55,065 nucleotides of DNA from Vicinamibacterales bacterium (lineage in GTDB: Bacteria; Acidobacteriota; Vicinamibacteria; Vicinamibacterales; CAVVIG01). Below are positions 47,101 to 55,065 of this stretch, piece after piece. Below the pieces are notes generated by a model. That model was given only the letters and a program-made list of their open reading frames with translations, did not search any database and was not told the origin of the DNA. Position numbers and translations under genes: made by a program. Numbering within the stretch: position 1 is the stretch's first letter; each line of letters starts with the position of its first letter. The stretch lies in the NCBI GenBank assembly GCA_040081675.1, contig JBEBGB010000001.1, positions 1 through 55,065 on the forward strand, in the 5' to 3' direction.

Positions 47101-48234
47101 TCAGTGCGTGTCAGCAGCGCTGCGCCAGAGCCACCGACGAGCGCCACGAAGAGCCCGCAGCACGTACATCGCCGCCAATGGCATGCGGCTCGACGGCGCA
47201 TAGACACTGCGCATGTAGTCGCGGCTCGGAAACAGATGCTCGCGCATCAACTGCGACCGCTCGGACCAGGTTGTGAGCACCCGCAGATCGTCGAGAACGA
47301 CCCTGGCCTGTGCGCGAGGGCGAAGATACTCGGCCGTACGCTCAGGTGCGTGGCTGACCAGTCGAGCGTCGCTGAGCACCCACGCGGGAACGTGCGTGTG
47401 GAGCCACCGGGCTGCCTGCGAAAGACCTTCTCGACACACCGCGGCGACACCACGCTCGGCGATGATCGTCAGAAAACCGTCCCACTCCCGAGCCTCGAGC
47501 CGCGAGGCGATGAGGTGGATGTCGTACGTCCACTTCAACTTGTGAGGTTCGTCGTTGTGGTGAGCCACTTGATGCATGCAGGCGATGAGCAGCGCGTGCA
47601 CATTCGATGGTCCACGGGCACGCGGCCCCAGCGATGGGATCGGCTGCGAGGCCGCGAGCAGCTCATCGAAGCGCAGGACGTGCGCGAAGACCTGCGGGCT
47701 CGCAAGCCGCCAGTGCAGGTCCACGAGGTGAACATCAGCGCCGTGCCGCGTCAGGGCATGGAGTTGCTGGGTCGCCGTCAGCTCGCCGGACGGCTTTGCA
47801 TCGGGGACATAGCCGAGGCCGCCCAGCACGCGGGTTGCGCTATCCCGCTGTGTGCGCCCAACGAGCAGGTCCGAATCGATCCGCGCGCGAAGGTCAGGTC
47901 TCGAGTAATGGCTGTATGCCAGATGACTGCCCTTGATGACCAGCACCTGAACGCCGTCGGCGTCCAGTTCGTTCAGCAACCGGCGCAGTTCAATCTCCGC
48001 AGCCAGGTCGGATGCCGCGAGTTTCTGCGACGCTTCTCGAAACACCCTTCGAAGCGTGTCGGCCAACTGGTCGCCTGCGGCGAGACGATCGGCCACGAGC
48101 GCCACGATATCGTGCTCTCGGGCGGCGCTCAGTAAGAGCTCCGCGTCAGACGTGGTCGATGAGCCCGCATCGCACTCCTCGCCTCTCAGCATCGAAGCCA
48201 GGCACTCATCCAGGCCGATAGATCCCTTCTGCAT
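47101..48234 (-). CDS. Nucleotidyltransferase (PF14907-like, lasso-cluster-associated)
   Basis: Trimmed to ATG 48234, 10 nt after the ABC stop. Pol-beta-type NTase motif 'VIKGSHLAYSHYSRPDLRARIDSDLLV', and 'KWTYDIHLI' further on. Confidence 0.7.
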   Translation of the reverse strand: MQKGSIGLDECLASMLRGEECDAGSSTTSDAELLLSAAREHDIVALVADRLAAGDQLADTLRRVFREASQKLAASDLAAEIELRRLLNELDADGVQVLVIKGSHLAYSHYSRPDLRARIDSDLLVGRTQRDSATRVLGGLGYVPDAKPSGELTATQQLHALTRHGADVHLVDLHWRLASPQVFAHVLRFDELLAASQPIPSLGPRARGPSNVHALLIACMHQVAHHNDEPHKLKWTYDIHLIASRLEAREWDGFLTIIAERGVAAVCREGLSQAARWLHTHVPAWVLSDARLVSHAPERTAEYLRPRAQARVVLDDLRVLTTWSERSQLMREHLFPSRDYMRSVYAPSSRMPLAAMYVLRALRGARRWLWRSAADTH

Positions 48235-48244
48235 GGTCAGCGGC

Positions 48245-50062
48245 TCACGCAGCACCGATCTCGACGCCCTGGGCGTCAGAGAGCGCGCGGAAGCGACTGG
48301 TCGGGTTGCCGAGCAGCGACGACCATGTGCCACACTCCCGCACGCGGCCGCCTTCGATCACGTAGATTTGATCGGCGTTTCTGATGGTGGACAACCGATG
48401 CGTGATGACGACGATCGTGATCTGCTCGTGGAGACCGTCGATCGCCGCCTGAATTCGCTGCTCGTTCTCGGAGTCGAGCGCACTGGTCGCTTCATCCAGA
48501 ATCAGAACCTGGGGCTGTCGTAACAGGGCTCTCGCAAGTGAGAGGCGCTGGCGTTCCCCGCCGGAAACCAGCACACCGCGATCGCCGATCACCGTGTCGA
48601 GCCCAGCCGGAAGGGCACGGACAAAGTCGGCAGCTGCGGACCGCTCCAGGGACTGCCAGATGGCTTCGTCGGTGGCCGAGGGACACGCCCACAACAGGTT
48701 TGCGCGAATGGTGTCGTGAAACAGCAACGTCTCCTGCGCGACGTATCCGATCCTCGCGCGCCACGACTGCAGCCGCTCCGGCGTGAGTGGCATCTCGTCG
48801 ACGAGCACGGCGCCGTGTGCAGGTGTGACGAGGCCCATCATCAGGTCGGCGATCGTGCTCTTGCCTGCGCCAGATGGTCCCACGATCGCGGTGGTCGTAT
48901 GTACGGGCACATGCAGCGTGACATCCTCCAGCGCCGGCCGCCCTGGCGTCTCCAGGTAGCTGAATGTCACATGGCGGCAGTCGAGCGACGCTTCGAACGT
49001 GACGCGGTCGTGCCGGGTTGGCTCGGGCTCCGCCGCAGCGAGGCACTGCGCCTCGGCTTCGACGACGCTCTCGAAGGCGGGCAACTCCACCAGCAACACC
49101 TGCGCCCTCTCATAGAGCGAAGTCACACGTGGCACAAGCCGCGCGAACAGGAAGATGAGCAGCAGCAGCGAGGCTGCGGATATCTGCATGACCGCTTGCG
49201 CGACGTACACGATCGCGGCGAGCAGCACCGCCGAGCCAATCGTCAGCCACTGACGGGCGCGGACGGACGCCGACATCGCACTGAGGCTTGCCTGGCCCAC
49301 CTCCGACGATAGCAGGCCGAAACGTTCCGCAAGACGCGACCCCGCGCCGTATCCCTTGGCCATCTTCATGCCCGCCAGATGGTCGAACGTCGCGCTGTGC
49401 AGACGCGTGGACGCGTCGGTGTACCGTTCGCCTGCAGCGTGTGCCCTCGCGAGTTGCCCTCGCATGGCGAGCGCCAGCACGGCTCCGCAGGTCACCACGA
49501 ACGTGGTCATCACCGGCGAAACCCGGAATGCGAGCACCACGTACACGAGCGCAATCACGCCCGTCACGAACAGGTCCATCAGGTAGTACGCAGCCGACGC
49601 GACACGATCGATCCGTTCGGTCAGCAACTGACCGAAGGTCGATGTTCGAGTTCGCGAGAAGTACACCCACGTGGTGCCCGCGATCGCGCGATGCAGTCGC
49701 CTTCGCAACGTGTCGACGATCTGCTCGCGGAGCCGCGTCTGCACGGTCGTTTGCTGCCGTTGAAGCAGGCTCTGGACGGTAACGATCGTGACGTACAGCG
49801 CCAGAACGGCGGGCAGCGTCGGAACCAGGCCGACCAGGGCGAATCCGCTCCTGAACACGCCCATGACGCGACCGAGAGCGCCCTGCCCCGCGTCGACTCC
49901 GACCAGTTGCAGAAGCGGGATGAGCACCAGAAGCCCGATTCCTTCCGCCAGACCAACGGCGAAGGTCAGGAGCATGGTGAGTGCCGCGCGGCGCGGCGCG
50001 ACCGCGATGATCGCCGTCACGAACTGCCTCAACGCGCGGAGAGTTGGAGAGAGGGTGCTCAC
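48245..50062 (-). CDS. ABC exporter, fused permease + ATPase (McjD-type lasso peptide export/immunity)
   Basis: 605 aa with a 6-TM domain, then Walker A 'GPSGAGKST', signature 'VSGGERQRLSLARA' and Walker B 'LILDEATSALD'. Starts 6 nt after the B2 stop. Confidence 0.9.
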   Translation of the reverse strand: MSTLSPTLRALRQFVTAIIAVAPRRAALTMLLTFAVGLAEGIGLLVLIPLLQLVGVDAGQGALGRVMGVFRSGFALVGLVPTLPAVLALYVTIVTVQSLLQRQQTTVQTRLREQIVDTLRRRLHRAIAGTTWVYFSRTRTSTFGQLLTERIDRVASAAYYLMDLFVTGVIALVYVVLAFRVSPVMTTFVVTCGAVLALAMRGQLARAHAAGERYTDASTRLHSATFDHLAGMKMAKGYGAGSRLAERFGLLSSEVGQASLSAMSASVRARQWLTIGSAVLLAAIVYVAQAVMQISAASLLLLIFLFARLVPRVTSLYERAQVLLVELPAFESVVEAEAQCLAAAEPEPTRHDRVTFEASLDCRHVTFSYLETPGRPALEDVTLHVPVHTTTAIVGPSGAGKSTIADLMMGLVTPAHGAVLVDEMPLTPERLQSWRARIGYVAQETLLFHDTIRANLLWACPSATDEAIWQSLERSAAADFVRALPAGLDTVIGDRGVLVSGGERQRLSLARALLRQPQVLILDEATSALDSENEQRIQAAIDGLHEQITIVVITHRLSTIRNADQIYVIEGGRVRECGTWSSLLGNPTSRFRALSDAQGVEIGAA

Positions 50063-50068
50063 ACCCCG

Positions 50069-50581
50069 CTAGCTCGCTGGAATGCTGTGCGGGGCGCTCG
50101 GCGGCGGCTCGGCGTCCAGGTGTCCGTCAGGACCAAAGGCGAACGCAGGGGTGTAGGACGCAATCGCGGATTGCGGTTCGCCAACCAACTGCCCGTCGAC
50201 CAGCACCCAGGCGTGACCGATCACACCGGCGGGGTCACGACCGACGCCGATGACCAACGTCGGATGCGCGCCCGCCGCGCACAGGTAGCGATACGCGATG
50301 AGGCTGCGTTCGAGACAATTGGCGCCCCGGTTCCACCGCGTGAGACGGGCGCCCCACTGCGCGAACGTGATGATGCGGCGCTCGCGATCGGCGTCTCGAG
50401 TCGCGCGCCGCTGCGGCTGATGCATGACCGCGGCGAGTGACTTCACCGAGACAACGCGTTTCAGCGCTGGAAGGACAAGAGCCCACGCCAATGCCTTGGT
50501 CACCAGGATCGCGTCGGAGACGGTGCGCACTTCCTGACCAAGACGACGAAGCACGTAACCACGCGGTGCGGCTGGAGACAT
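50069..50581 (-). CDS. Lasso peptide leader peptidase B2 (transglutaminase-fold Cys protease)
   Basis: Trimmed to ATG 50581, which overlaps the kinase stop by 1 nt (TGATG). 'GANCLERSLIAYRYL' (catalytic Cys) and 'GVIGHAWVLVDG' (catalytic His). Confidence 0.85.
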   Translation of the reverse strand: MSPAAPRGYVLRRLGQEVRTVSDAILVTKALAWALVLPALKRVVSVKSLAAVMHQPQRRATRDADRERRIITFAQWGARLTRWNRGANCLERSLIAYRYLCAAGAHPTLVIGVGRDPAGVIGHAWVLVDGQLVGEPQSAIASYTPAFAFGPDGHLDAEPPPSAPHSIPAS

Positions 50582-51510
50582 CACTGCACCGTGGGGGACG
50601 GCGTGGTCGGGCCGCGTCGGCGCGCCTGTCCGGTGAGACCGCCGTTCACGCCGCAATCGGCCGCGTGTGCTTCGAGTTGATCGAGGTTGGATGCCAGCGC
50701 GGGGAAGGTTCTGGGAAAGGTGAATCGAAAGGAAGGCACCGCGACGGCCAGCGACAGGTAATCGCGCATGAGCCGTTGGTTGTGTTCCGGCTCGTTGATG
50801 CTGAACGCATGTGCTTGCGCCAGCAAGAGCGGAAGGCTCTCGGCAGCTTTGAGTCGTGTGAACGACACCGGCGTCGACGGGTCAGGCGACGGGTCCAGGG
50901 CGTAGATCACCCTCAGGCGGAGACAGGTCGATGGCCAGTCGAACGGGATATCCGTTGCCTCCGACTTGCCAAAGTACTCTGCTGTCGCTTGACGCAGTCG
51001 TGCTTCGCTTCTGAGGGGGTACAGGTTGATGGGCGCGTCAGTGTCGTTGGGGTGACACGAAAAGGCCAGGGCGTCGTCGGAAACCGGCGTCCATCCAGGA
51101 CGCTGGGCCAGAGCGTACGCGGTTGTGGACTTGCTCGCACCGCTCGGACCAGTGAACGCGATCACGTCGCCAGTTGGCGACGCAACCGCGCTGGCATGCA
51201 GAACCTGTCGGTGCCAGATTGGATAAATGGCGGGGAGCCAGCTTCTCCACACGAGCTGTTCGAACTGGGATCGATCAACTCCGGTGCACGGGCACAGTAC
51301 CAGTTCCGGGCGGTCGGCGGTAAAGGTCGCGCCGCCGAATTCCGGCTGCCAAATCCAGTACTGTTGCCCGACCAGAAAGCAGTGCGTGGGTGCCTCACCG
51401 TCCACGGGCCAGGTGGCCAGATGCTGGCCAGCGGTACTGACACGAACGAATACGTCGTCCGTCTGGCTCACCACCTGCCAACGCAGGACCGGGACGACCC
51501 ACGATGACAC
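50581..51510 (-). CDS. HPr-kinase-homologous peptide kinase (lasso tailoring)
   Basis: P-loop 'FTGPSGASKSTTAYALA' (compare HprK GxSGxGKS). Start set to GTG 51510, just downstream of the precursor stop. The tracked 373-aa ORF extends over the precursor gene in another frame. Start uncertain (+/- 60 nt). Confidence 0.7.
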   Translation of the reverse strand: MSSWVVPVLRWQVVSQTDDVFVRVSTAGQHLATWPVDGEAPTHCFLVGQQYWIWQPEFGGATFTADRPELVLCPCTGVDRSQFEQLVWRSWLPAIYPIWHRQVLHASAVASPTGDVIAFTGPSGASKSTTAYALAQRPGWTPVSDDALAFSCHPNDTDAPINLYPLRSEARLRQATAEYFGKSEATDIPFDWPSTCLRLRVIYALDPSPDPSTPVSFTRLKAAESLPLLLAQAHAFSINEPEHNQRLMRDYLSLAVAVPSFRFTFPRTFPALASNLDQLEAHAADCGVNGGLTGQARRRGPTTPSPTVQ

Positions 51511-51521
51511 GGTCGTAACGC

Positions 51522-51683
51522 CTAGTCGCCCATCATCTGTTCGAGGGTGACGCTGCCGTTGTCCATGTTGATCATCGTCTTCGAGCCTGCCCGGACGAAG
51601 TCGCGCAGGTTGCCGAGTTCTTGAACTGACGGCGAATGCCAGACCGGCTTGAGGCGGGCTTCGTTGCTCTTGGGTGCTGCCAT
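51522..51683 (-). CDS. Lasso peptide precursor (53 aa): MAAPKSNEARLKPVWHSPSVQELGNLRDFVRAGSKTMINMDNGSVTLEQMMGD
   Basis: Not in the ORF track (below its size cut-off). ATG 51683 is preceded by GGGAG (51691-51695) with a 7-nt spacer, and TAG ends at 51522. The leader has W-x2-P-x-V-x3-G spacing like the lasso RRE-recognition motif. The C-terminal part has a small residue followed by Asp 8-10 residues later. It sits between the cyclase and kinase genes. Confidence 0.7.
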   Translation of the reverse strand: MAAPKSNEARLKPVWHSPSVQELGNLRDFVRAGSKTMINMDNGSVTLEQMMGD

Positions 51684-51814: not shown

Positions 51815-53701
51815 TCAGCGCCCCGTGTGCACTGACGTCCAGAGTTCTGCGCTCATGAGCGCGAACATGCGCACCAATGTGCTGCTGTCCGGGTCCGCTG
51901 ACCCGGCGTCTTCCCGTAAGACCCGCGGGTCTACCAGGTTCAACGCCGACAACGTCTCGAACTGGTGCATCCGCCAGGCGCTCGTCACTCCGTCGCGAAG
52001 AACGCGAAACACCAGATCCTGGCCTTGTTTCGGATATTCCTTTCGTTGCCTGCCGAATCCGAGACCGGGGAGGTGTCGCTCCACGACCGGTCGAAGCAGG
52101 CCCTTGTACTTGTTGCCATGGAGGAGCACTTGCGGCGGAATTCGCCGGAGGAGCTGTACCAACGAGGCGTCGTGGTAGGGAACGAGCAACCGCAGCCCGC
52201 ACAGCCGTTCGACGTGAAATGTCGTCTCGAACTCGTGGTGGACGTACTGGTTGTCATCCGAAAGCGATTGCCGCAGATAGCTTCTCGGAATCCTGCCGGC
52301 GCTGCTTAGTGCCGGCGTTCGTCGGTTCGCGAGATGCTCGATGAGCTCATCTCGCAAGGCGAGGTCTGGGCACAGCCACGCAGGGATTGCGCCGTCCGCA
52401 CGGCTCCGGTGATAGCGTGCCTTGGCGCGTGGAAGCGTCAGCATCGCGAACGAATCGACAAAGGGCCGCACCGCGCCGTGCCAGAGCAGGTGCCTCGCCG
52501 CGCTCCGGTAGGACGCTCCGCCTGTCCCGATCTCCGAGTGAATGAAGCCGCGGAGGTCGCTCAGGCGAAGTCGGCGCAGGAGATCGGCGGCATGAGCGTC
52601 TGGGACAGACAGCCAGTTGTCGGCGCCGGAGCCAGTCAGCAGCGTGTGCAGGTTGCTGTGCACCGCTTCGCGGAAAAAGCCCATGGCGGAGCCGACCCAG
52701 TAGATCCGCGACGGTCCCGGCAACTGCGGCGTCACTTCGAGAGAAAGCTCGACTTCGTTCCGCTCGTGCGTCCACTCCGACTTGCGCCTGACCACGTGCG
52801 GCATGCCCAGCGCGCCGGCCGACTGCGCCTGCTGATCCCACTCATGGAGCAGTTCGTCGGTCTGGCCCGAAAGCGCCACAAGCGGCGGCCGCGCGTGATC
52901 GCGACAGTATTTTGTCGCGAGCGCCGCCAGAGTGACCGAATCGACGCCGCCACTGAGCATGAGGCCGTCTGGCGCAAGCCGCATGCAGCGCGAAACCGCC
53001 CGATAGAGGGCAGGCTCGAATGCGTCCAGAGCCTCGCGTTCGCTGAGGCAGTCGGCGTCGGTTTCGGGCACCGCATCCCAGTACTTGCGTTCGCGCGTGG
53101 TACGGTCCGCAGCAACCTCGAGGTAGTGACCCGGTCGCAGGCGCTTGATGTCTGCAAAGAAGGTCTCGCCGGCGCCGGGCCAGAGCGTCATCGCCGCCAG
53201 AGCCAGTGACAGCCTGTTCGGCGTGTTGGGTACGTCGCCGCTCGCTGCCAGGGTCAGCACGTTCGCGCCGAACCAGATCGCTCGCGGGCCGGCTGAATAG
53301 AACAAGGGATGCCGACCCATGGGATCGCGACCGAGGAACAAGCGATGCGTGTCGGCGTCAGCGATCGCGACGAGATACGCTCCCTCGAGCCTGGACAGGC
53401 ACTCCATGCCCCACGCCTGATACGCCGACGCGACGATGTGCGCGCACGACGCTGCCCCGGGCAGACGCAGTTGCTCGCACAACTCGTCCCGATCGAACAG
53501 GTACCCGTCGAACAGCACGGTGCTCGGGCGTCCCGGCGCGCCGTAGGTCCAGAACGTCGCTCCAGTGTCTGCACGCTGCACATCGAACGGGCCGACGCTG
53601 CTCAGTCCATCTCGGGGCGGCCGGGCCGACCGCTGGTCGTATGCAAAGGCGGCGACCCACAGGGGCAGGTCGTACCGGGTGTCGATACTGGCTGTACTCA
53701 T
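51815..53701 (-). CDS. Lasso cyclase C (asparagine-synthetase B homologue)
   Basis: 628 aa. PP-loop 'MLSGGVDS' is present. The N-terminus 'MSTASIDTRYD' lacks the Cys2 nucleophile of glutamine-hydrolysing AsnB. The start overlaps the PqqD stop (ATGA). Confidence 0.9.
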   Translation of the reverse strand: MSTASIDTRYDLPLWVAAFAYDQRSARPPRDGLSSVGPFDVQRADTGATFWTYGAPGRPSTVLFDGYLFDRDELCEQLRLPGAASCAHIVASAYQAWGMECLSRLEGAYLVAIADADTHRLFLGRDPMGRHPLFYSAGPRAIWFGANVLTLAASGDVPNTPNRLSLALAAMTLWPGAGETFFADIKRLRPGHYLEVAADRTTRERKYWDAVPETDADCLSEREALDAFEPALYRAVSRCMRLAPDGLMLSGGVDSVTLAALATKYCRDHARPPLVALSGQTDELLHEWDQQAQSAGALGMPHVVRRKSEWTHERNEVELSLEVTPQLPGPSRIYWVGSAMGFFREAVHSNLHTLLTGSGADNWLSVPDAHAADLLRRLRLSDLRGFIHSEIGTGGASYRSAARHLLWHGAVRPFVDSFAMLTLPRAKARYHRSRADGAIPAWLCPDLALRDELIEHLANRRTPALSSAGRIPRSYLRQSLSDDNQYVHHEFETTFHVERLCGLRLLVPYHDASLVQLLRRIPPQVLLHGNKYKGLLRPVVERHLPGLGFGRQRKEYPKQGQDLVFRVLRDGVTSAWRMHQFETLSALNLVDPRVLREDAGSADPDSSTLVRMFALMSAELWTSVHTGR

Positions 53702-54006
53702 GGCGAGGGGCCTTCGTGGGCCAGTTCAATCAGCCCCTTTGTTCTGAAGTCCTCGATGAGTCTATGCACTTCGCGCGACACGAGGTCGGTCGGTTCGAGA
53801 TACTCGGCTGCCAGGCGCTCGACGATCTCGTTCACGGTAAGTCCGTCAGCGATCAGCAGTGCGACGCGCGCGGCGGTTTCGTTGAGCGAGTAGGCCGCTT
53901 CAGCGGTCAGCTTCAGAGCGAGAGCCTCGTTGCCCACGTGCCGAATGACGACATCTGGCGCGAACCGAACCGCGGACACCGCATCGGGGAATGGCTGATC
54001 CCCCAT
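53698..54006 (-). CDS. PqqD-family RiPP recognition element (lasso B1)
   Basis: Trimmed to ATG 54006 (TGATG overlap with the methyltransferase stop). 102 aa. 'VVIRHVGNEALALKLTAEAAYSLNETAARVALLIADGLTVNEIVERLAAEY...VHRLIEDFRTKGLI' is the PqqD pattern. Confidence 0.85.
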   Translation of the reverse strand: MGDQPFPDAVSAVRFAPDVVIRHVGNEALALKLTAEAAYSLNETAARVALLIADGLTVNEIVERLAAEYLEPTDLVSREVHRLIEDFRTKGLIELAHEGPSP

Positions 54007-55065
54007 CAGGCAAAGCGCTTCACGATCGCGCGCACGAATCGTGAGGCATCCTCGTGGGTCTGGTACCTGGTCGGCCATTGCTCGAGAACGCCGGCCGCGA
54101 TCTCTCTGACCGGCGTCGTGCCGGCACACCGCGCAAGTACGAACTGCGCGGCCTCGCCTTCGACGTTCAAGGCGGGCAGGTAATCCATCGCCGCCTTCTT
54201 CAGAGTCGACGCCGTCATGGGGTCGGCGAGCATTGTCGAGTGGCGCTGCGAGCCCCCGTTCCACGACACGCGCCAGGTCCAATCACCGTAGGGCGCGCGG
54301 TCGAGGCGAAGTGCCACGCGATCGCCAACCGACAGGGCAATGGGCGGGTCGAGCGGGAGAAAGCCAGCCGACCAGTGCATGGGTTCCGCGTCTGGCGCCG
54401 TCGACACCCAGCGTTCGCCCAGCCGCATCGTGAACCAACCAGCGAAACCGTGACAGAGCTCCGCGGTGCGAACGGTGAATTCGGTCTCGGCGTGAATCGG
54501 TCCGTAACTGTCCGACAGAAAGTCGAGGCTGTGCACCTCGCGGGGTTCGGCGAGATAGACCACGTTCGTGCGATCCCACCGAAAGTGCACGGTGTTGGCC
54601 GCGTATGCGCGAGCGGGCTCGAGCGTCACGCCGTGTTGAGGCTCGCTCCAACTGGAGATCTCGCGGGCGTGCAGACGCGGAGCGCTCACCGGGGCGATGA
54701 CGATCGTGGCTCGGTCGGGAATCATCGCTCCGCCCGGTTTCATGAGCGTGTCGCGCGCGCGGAACAGAACGGGCAGCAGATCCTCGCTCATGAGGAGATT
54801 GCCGGTGAGTACGGACACGATGACGTCCACCGGTTCCGGAATCTGAACGTCGTCGAGACCACCGTGCAGGCACTGCACGACGTCCTGCAAATGGTTGGCG
54901 CGTGCGGCTTCGGACGCAACCGACACCACCTCTTCGGGTTCAACGAGGTAGACGCGCTTCGCTCCAAGTCTGGCCGCCATCAGGCCATGGATGCCGAGAC
55001 CTGCGCCGAGGTCGAGCACGACGCTCGACGGAGTGATCACCCGCTCGAGCGCGTCGGCATACGCA
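54006..55065 (-). CDS. PRMT-fold (protein arginine methyltransferase-like) SAM methyltransferase with C-terminal PqqD/RRE-like extension; 5' end outside window
   Basis: The reading frame is open to the window edge ('AYADALERVITPSSVVLDLGAGLGIHGLMAARLGAKRVYLVE' = SAM motif I/post-I). 'SVLTGNLLMSEDLL' resembles the double-E loop, and 'HGFAGWFTMRL...PMHWSAGFLPL' resembles the PRMT beta-barrel/THW loop. The last ~55-75 aa resemble the helical half of PqqD. Confidence 0.7.
   Translation of the reverse strand, partial: AYADALERVITPSSVVLDLGAGLGIHGLMAARLGAKRVYLVEPEEVVSVASEAARANHLQDVVQCLHGGLDDVQIPEPVDVIVSVLTGNLLMSEDLLPVLFRARDTLMKPGGAMIPDRATIVIAPVSAPRLHAREISSWSEPQHGVTLEPARAYAANTVHFRWDRTNVVYLAEPREVHSLDFLSDSYGPIHAETEFTVRTAELCHGFAGWFTMRLGERWVSTAPDAEPMHWSAGFLPLDPPIALSVGDRVALRLDRAPYGDWTWRVSWNGGSQRHSTMLADPMTASTLKKAAMDYLPALNVEGEAAQFVLARCAGTTPVREIAAGVLEQWPTRYQTHEDASRFVRAIVKRFA

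Follow-up and report, generated by a model that had tools for sequence, protein, structure and literature searches.

The 55,065-nt stretch of DNA analyzed here (the window) is an entire contig (C415). The metagenome-assembled genome (MAG) to which it belongs, that of a Vicinamibacterales bacterium, has a size of 6.58 Mb and is 99% complete. Relatives of its genes are found in MAGs of Vicinamibacteria and of other Acidobacteriota. From position 47101 to the contig end, the minus strand is occupied by a single, tightly packed, operon-like lasso peptide cluster comprising, in the order of transcription, genes MT, B1, C, A, K, B2, D and N. The present study concerns the product of gene K, a kinase of the HPr-kinase (HprK) fold, and the residue that it modifies in the lasso precursor encoded by gene A. 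Below we argue that this residue is probably an internal threonine, Thr36, near the start of the predicted macrolactam ring, and not a serine at the end of the peptide. The features of the cluster are as follows.

54006 to 55065, minus strand: MT, a PRMT-like methyltransferase whose 5' end is cut by the contig end (matches to PRMT_C, PrmA and Methyltransf_25).
53698 to 54006, minus strand: B1, a PqqD-like recognition element (RRE) for RiPPs (peptides made on the ribosome and altered after translation), overlapping the start of C and the stop of MT (PF05402, E 3.8e-11; weak matches to NF033530 and NF033536, below cut-off).
51815 to 53701, minus strand: C, the asparagine-synthetase-like lasso macrolactam cyclase (PF00733, E 8.7e-19; matches to NF033535 and NF033561, both below the curated cut-offs).
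51522 to 51683, minus strand: A, the lasso precursor, 53 aa, ending in ...EQMMGD (open reading frame, and homologous precursors between C and K in related loci).
51576 to 51578, minus strand: codon of Thr36, where phosphorylation is predicted; this residue is the third in the motif x-K-[S/T]-x4-D (family conservation, and Ser3 of BsfA).
50581 to 51510, minus strand: K, the precursor kinase of the HPr-kinase fold, 309 aa, family PF27840 'ScmC' (AlphaFold2 model and fold superposition).
51127 to 51150, minus strand: P-loop of the kinase, GPSGASKS, in which Ser126 replaces the Gly of most relatives (read in the sequence).
50069 to 50581, minus strand: B2, the transglutaminase-like lasso leader peptidase (PF13471, E 7.3e-18; NF033537 lasso_biosyn_B2, 57.8 bits against a cut-off of 33).
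48245 to 50062, minus strand: D, an ABC exporter with an MsbA/HepA-like permease-ATPase (ABC_tran, E 5.7e-30; HepA/MsbA-like matches in NCBIfam).
47101 to 48333, minus strand: N, a PF14907 nucleotidyltransferase similar to PsmN and BsfN (Pfam PF14907, E 1.9e-39).

Start and stop codons overlap at the MT/B1 and B1/C junctions, as deduced from the coordinates of the open reading frames, and at the K/B2 junction, as read in the sequence. In the latter case, the B2 reading frame spans 50069-50656 and its start is the ATG at 50581, within a TGATG overlap with the kinase stop codon. The reading frame of N extends to a GTG at 48333, overlapping D; its start is likely the ATG at 48234, which follows the D stop. 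The ABC_membrane match of D falls just short of significance (27.6 bits against a Pfam cut-off of 28). On the 3' side of N lies a convergent gene resembling those for O-antigen ligases. The 5' portion of the cluster could be recovered from a second contig of the genome (C335), whose end overlaps that of the window (54967-55065) by exactly 99 bp. This contig (locus L098, 5902-6362) supplies the first 20 codons of MT and, directly upstream, a second PqqD-like gene of 98 aa; a divergently transcribed, unrelated gene marks the 5' boundary. Thus, the whole cluster consists of nine genes, including two for free-standing RRE-like proteins. A scan of the cluster for promoters and terminators performed no better on the real sequence than on shuffled sequence.

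Using the kinase as a guide, we retrieved 13 genome loci and 40 metagenome loci with related clusters. The set MT, B1, C, A and K is kept across them. A match to N was obtained in 11 genome loci; the other two of the 13, L008 and L014, are truncated. A precursor was found in 45 of the 53 loci, always as a single gene sited between C and K. Since the same gene arrangement recurs in the genome and metagenome collections, the cluster is not a chance pattern of open reading frames.

The precursor gene is preceded by a GGGAG ribosome-binding site and its 3' end reads ATG ATG GGC GAC TAG. The initial annotation of the locus had rightly pointed out that the peptide, ending in ...EQMMGD, lacks a C-terminal serine, and that the only hydroxyl residues of the putative core are S34, T36, S44 and T46, which are indeed the sole serines and threonines following G33. 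To characterize these residues, 42 distinct precursors of the family (sequences derived from the loci plus four called peptides) were aligned on the x-K-[S/T]-x4-D segment. Three positions turned out to be invariant in character: position 2 is Lys, position 3 is Ser or Thr and position 8 is Asp in all 42 sequences. Position 1 is Gly in 37 of them and S, T or N in the small clade to which the window belongs. Position 11 is Ser or Thr in 33 precursors. The last residue varies freely (P, N, G, D, M and others) and is a serine only once. In the window the ring segment is S34-K35-T36-M-I-N-M-D41, with Thr36 as the counterpart of the invariant position-3 hydroxyl. It is because this position carries Ser or Thr in every precursor that Thr36 is the predicted acceptor; conservation alone can thus designate a candidate phosphorylation site throughout this Acidobacteriota family.

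A precedent for the position designated in this manner was described by Duan et al. 2023 (PMC10368454) in Bradymonas sediminis FA350, whose bsf cluster includes genes A, B1, B2, C, D, K and N. There, BsfK phosphorylates Ser3 of the core of BsfA, a precursor that ends in Asp. Changing this serine to alanine (S3A) abolishes phosphorylation, the T2A, S10A and T11A changes are without effect, and a threonine replacement (S3T) is accepted (PMC10368454). Position 3 of the core (S3) is also the site of action of LppK from the linear polyphosphorylated peptide (LPP) systems of Bacillota (PMC13381572, 2026). By analogy with the Bsf system, we favor, with moderate confidence, Thr36 as the residue targeted by the window kinase. 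The expectation that lasso cluster kinases act on a C-terminal serine is borne out by PadeK, ThcoK, SyanK and PsmK, and does not extend to BsfK or LppK. The suggestion of an internal Ser/Thr specificity in the initial annotation is the one best supported by the alignment, although such specificity would not be new, the BsfK precedent having been published in 2023 (PMC10368454).

A second lasso family from the same class (L061-L084 and L085-L096) agrees with this pattern. Its clusters comprise B1, C, A, K, B2 and usually N or D, and their kinase is only distantly related (27-34% identity). All 21 precursors read in this family contain K-x-[S/T], mostly as G-K-x-[S/T] with N or some other residue before the Lys in a few cases; they have a D-P-G-E motif and none of them terminates with serine.

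The strongest competing possibility is that the kinase targets a different internal hydroxyl: Ser44, which occupies family position 11, or else Ser34 or Thr46. Ser44 owes its candidacy to the frequency of Ser or Thr at position 11; however, this position is Ala or Gly in the remaining 9 precursors of the alignment, whereas position 3 admits no such replacements. Furthermore, BsfA variants S10A and T11A were still phosphorylated while S3A was not (PMC10368454). Neither S34 nor T46 is conserved among the family precursors. Altogether, we regard an acceptor other than Thr36 within the core as unlikely.

The lysine immediately preceding the predicted acceptor (position 35; window 51579-51581) deserves a comment of its own. 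It is present in all 42 precursors, while BsfA has Thr at this site. The residue could serve in recognition by the kinase, as a methylation target or in the bioactivity of the product. We considered the PRMT-like methyltransferase as a reason for its invariance and found this idea unsupported: the second family keeps the Lys in the absence of a detectable methyltransferase nearby, no PRMT-like gene being found within approximately 6 kb in 12 of its loci.

A peculiarity of the family is the spacing between leader and core. The leader motif W-x-x-P-x-L lies 22 residues before the Gly of the G-K-S sequence in 33 of the 42 precursors, a distance that is 19-20 residues for the window's clade. In this clade S, T or N occupies ring position 1, which makes the leader-core boundary and the numbering of core residues uncertain. 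Members of the clade have a Gly just before ring position 1, hence the ring may extend from S34 to D41 (8 residues) or from G33 to D41 (9 residues). Counting back from the Gly of G-K-S, leader position -2 is mostly Ala, with the cleavage site uncertain, as compared to Ile or Val in Bsf-type precursors; if the motif is numbered in the canonical way, as W(-17)/P(-14)/L(-12), a Val-Arg pair sits at -2/-1. Precursors with Ala(-2) had been predicted earlier (Kretsch 2023, as cited in PMC10368454). Whichever plausible core start is considered, neither the window sequence (V30-R31-A32-G33-S34) nor the consensus of the family has a Thr two residues before it.

The relationship of the kinase to HprK became visible through fold searches and not through sequence searches. 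Neither phmmer nor a profile built from 36 relatives yielded anything other than generic P-loop proteins when run against Protein Data Bank (PDB) sequences. An AlphaFold2 model based on the same 36 relatives had a mean predicted local distance difference test (pLDDT) score of 91.4. In this model, residues 100-287 fit the catalytic domains of HprK/P from three species (Z 11-12). The best of these superpositions, on structure 1ko7, has a Z score of 12.2 (root-mean-square deviation 2.4 Å over 128 aa, 20% identity). On the sequence side, 27 of the 36 relatives show weak matches to PF07475 (Hpr_kinase_C; best E 5.2e-5), and the family PF27840, named ScmC in the Atlas, is precomputed on many relatives. 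Judging from the model, the protein is a relative of the HPr-kinase/phosphoenolpyruvate (PEP) carboxykinase fold.

Residues H105, K127, D145 and D146 are invariant among the 36 relatives and S128 is nearly so. Their spacing is within one residue of that of H148/K169/S170/D186/D187 in BsfK. Mutagenesis of ThcoK and BsfK has established that lasso kinases need this His-Lys-Asp-Asp set (for BsfK, see PMC10368454). The gene content of the cluster, the kinase fold, the catalytic residues and the conservation of the acceptor position throughout the family are direct observations.

The fold leaves room for another possibility, namely that the kinase acts on a target that is not a hydroxyl of the peptide; this could be a carboxylate or a small molecule, or else a substrate on which N depends. 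The entire protein superposes on ATP-dependent PEP carboxykinases with a Z score of 12.6, and the precursor does end in Asp. On the other hand, all characterized RiPP-associated members of the fold are Ser kinases acting on a precursor. In the window the kinase gene directly follows the precursor gene and is translationally coupled to B2, and the precursors of the family offer an invariant Ser or Thr. We thus consider a target other than a peptide hydroxyl quite improbable.

The initial annotation had described the kinase P-loop as atypical, on account of the Ser that precedes the Lys in GPSGASKS. The reading is correct: relative to the strict Walker A motif, GxxxxGK[ST], Ser replaces the last Gly, a variant common to the window protein and four close relatives. 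Among 110 relatives with a readable P-loop, 100 have Gly in front of the Lys, while Ser and Cys are found there in 5 relatives each. The Ser and Cys variants are confined to the window's nearest clade, in proteins that are otherwise intact and full-length. In BsfK, where G168 corresponds to Ser126 of the window protein, the mutants G166A and G168A retained almost wild-type activity (PMC10368454), so that this Gly, although conserved, is dispensable. Since intact relatives share the Ser/Cys replacement and the BsfK variant is active, the P-loop Ser is probably a tolerated, clade-specific change rather than a sign of new chemistry or decay. We also considered whether the P-loop Ser tracks with a Thr acceptor. 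This association is unsupported, as one relative (P0005) has Gly in its P-loop while the precursor taken to be its neighbor, on account of an equal length of their longest contigs (11,721 bases), has Thr.

It might still be envisaged that the Gly-to-Ser change left the kinase inactive, as a scaffold or the product of a decaying gene. Besides the broken Walker A motif, this scenario could draw on the fact that the window protein alone loses the weak Hpr_kinase_C match seen in 27 of its 36 relatives. Yet Ser or Cys is retained in relatives down to approximately 55-66% identity, the catalytic His, Lys, Ser and Asp-Asp residues are all in place, and the equivalent change was almost without consequence in BsfK (PMC10368454). 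A dead kinase is therefore a very remote prospect. Remoter still is the existence of a second, Ser-terminated precursor as the true substrate: although the window ends within the cluster, part of which lies beyond it, a search of the whole genome returned one precursor homologue, contig C335 adds just the MT start, the PqqD-like gene and the divergent unrelated gene, the convergent O-antigen-ligase-like gene closes the region downstream of N, and every related locus with a precursor holds one copy of the family type, between C and K.

The other half of the enzyme pair recognized in the initial annotation is the nucleotidyltransferase. The N protein matches PF14907 with 136.2 bits against a cut-off of 31.2 and covers 246 of the 249 profile positions. 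Residues K101, G102, D120 and D122, which form a K-G-[SGT] motif and a D120-x-D122 motif, are invariant in 14 N homologues. The AlphaFold2 model (pLDDT 85) has as nearest solved folds the nucleotidyltransferases MenT1 (E 1e-5; template modeling score 0.71 by target) and ANT(2'')-Ia, with the ribitol-phosphate transferase FKRP lower in the list. The same kind of template matches was reported for PsmN. For pseudomycoidin to receive one or two hexoses on its phosphoserine, this protein is required, and its D134A/D136A mutant is dead. Because the G-[SGT] and D-x-D motifs are invariant in the family and the PsmN mutant is inactive, N looks active from its sequence. By analogy with PsmN, it would probably decorate the Thr36 phosphate.

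Taken together, these elements suggest the following pathway. The kinase would bind the leader-bearing precursor, probably aided by a PqqD-like RRE, and move a phosphate from a nucleoside triphosphate to the hydroxyl of Thr36, which would be core position 3 if the core begins with S34 and position 4 if it begins with G33. B2 would then cut off the leader and C would close the 8- or 9-residue ring onto Asp41. N would then most likely add a group to the Thr36 phosphate, as in the case of PsmN and pseudomycoidin, and the ABC transporter would export the product. A more elaborate version, which we put forward tentatively and consider rather doubtful, has the Thr36 phosphate acting as a handle on which the PF14907 enzyme builds a phosphodiester-linked sugar or nucleotide inside the macrolactam ring, with the PRMT-like methyltransferase adding a further mark. 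If this were true, the lasso peptide would carry its decoration on the ring and would differ from all those isolated to date. A bulky group in the ring, as opposed to the tail group of pseudomycoidin, could act as a steric lock or as a pharmacophore.

Several points weigh against the proposed phosphorylation of Thr36 and its sequels. It is by analogy with the characterized systems that we propose the phosphorylation, the residue and stage at which it occurs and the role of N. The window kinase has no kinase match in Pfam or NCBIfam, showing just a weak one to AAA_33, and no match at E<=1 in the local copy of Pfam, which lacks PF27840. The likeness between this kinase and BsfK was assessed by eye only; the two sequences appear colinear over their whole length, including an N-terminal [YW]-[IV]-W-Q motif. 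The leader motif W-x-x-P-x-L lies 19-23 residues from the ring, compared to the canonical 17, and ring position 1 in the window's clade is S, T or N and not Gly. LppK did not accept the S3T change, and deletion of LppN changed nothing in a heterologous host (PMC13381572), so that the role ascribed to N is weakly grounded. Finally, a mature Bsf lasso peptide was never observed (PMC10368454).

The distribution of the kinase was analyzed at several levels. Of 401 genomes sampled from the class, 34 carry a related kinase, with 6 of the matches, including that in the window's own genome, at E<=1e-60. Members of the family are common in metagenomes from soil and water. A representative search for the kinase superfamily as a whole showed it to be large: 10,199 clusters matched at E<=1e-3, and at E<=1e-30 the number was 202. 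Among ten of these hits looked up by cluster, one was assigned to a 'Deltaproteobacteria bacterium' MAG.

Some of the loci depart from the arrangement of the window. In L003, L006, L007, L018-L020, L025 and L032, nothing resembling B2 or D follows the kinase gene. In L003, L006 and L007, the N gene lies upstream of MT, along with D in L003, and tblastn did not detect B2. The gene order after K is thus not fixed, and in these loci B2 may be situated elsewhere or be too divergent for detection. The cluster copy in a Vicinamibacteria MAG (L013, CAWBBN010000027.1) has a degraded appearance: the matches to C, B2 and D are each broken into several pieces, the K match is limited to residues 27-158 and a stop codon lies inside N. 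One in-frame TAG is present in the kinase homologue of another locus (L057; G291:C27). A 10.8-kb contig carrying a K, B2, D and N block of Acidobacteriota type (L011, CALQBJ020000133.1) is filed under a Bifidobacterium breve MAG, an assignment that is most likely a binning error.

The present findings remove an apparent contradiction, in that the kinases of lasso clusters are not limited to the C-terminal serine. No mature product has been isolated from the position-3-phosphorylated lasso clusters. A tractable member that combines a predicted Thr acceptor with a naturally altered P-loop could help to clarify the nature of this product and the chemistry performed by the PF14907 partner. The practical value of the system is modest but real.

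Comparison with known systems places the window cluster apart from the paeninodin- and pseudomycoidin-type clusters (PadeK, ThcoK, SyanK, and PsmK with PsmN). Common traits are an HprK-like kinase acting on the leader-bearing precursor and a PF14907-type nucleotidyltransferase. However, the kinases of these systems phosphorylate or polyphosphorylate a near-invariant C-terminal Ser, which the window precursor lacks and which is found in a single member of its family. Moreover, their precursors carry a Thr at leader position -2, absent from the window and from the family consensus. The LPP clusters of Bacillota (LppK/LppN; PMC13381572) resemble the window cluster in the predicted acceptor, whose position 3 matches core S3 of the LppK substrate. 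They differ by the absence of a cyclase and of B2 and the use of a signal-peptidase-like protease, and the peptide stays linear.

The resemblance is closest to the bsf cluster. Both are lasso clusters of the split-B type in which an HprK-like kinase and a nucleotidyltransferase are encoded along with an ABC exporter. In both, the precursor ends in Gly-Asp rather than Ser, has no Thr at leader position -2, bears Ser or Thr at position 3 and has a predicted 8-residue ring closed onto Asp8 and followed by Gly-Ser. The BsfA core, as read by eye from the printed gene, begins with Gly1-Thr2-Ser3, closes on Asp8, continues with Gly-Ser-Thr and ends in Gly-Asp. The core of BsfA alone is not a BsfK substrate, and B1 accelerates the reaction (PMC10368454). 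The catalytic His, Gly, Lys, Ser and Asp-Asp residues are common to the two kinases. The differences concern the phylum, core position 2 (Lys in the window family, Thr in BsfA), the acceptor (Thr in the window, Ser in BsfA) and ring position 1, where the window's clade has S, T or N and not Gly. In addition, precursors of the window family have 2-6 more residues between the leader motif and the ring, the cluster comprises a PRMT-like methyltransferase and a second PqqD-like gene, and the kinase has Ser, not Gly, before the P-loop Lys. In conclusion, the window cluster probably belongs to the Bsf-type lasso clusters, which are phosphorylated at position 3, as a member from the Acidobacteriota that has extras of its own in the methyltransferase, the second RRE, the leader spacer and the P-loop Ser.

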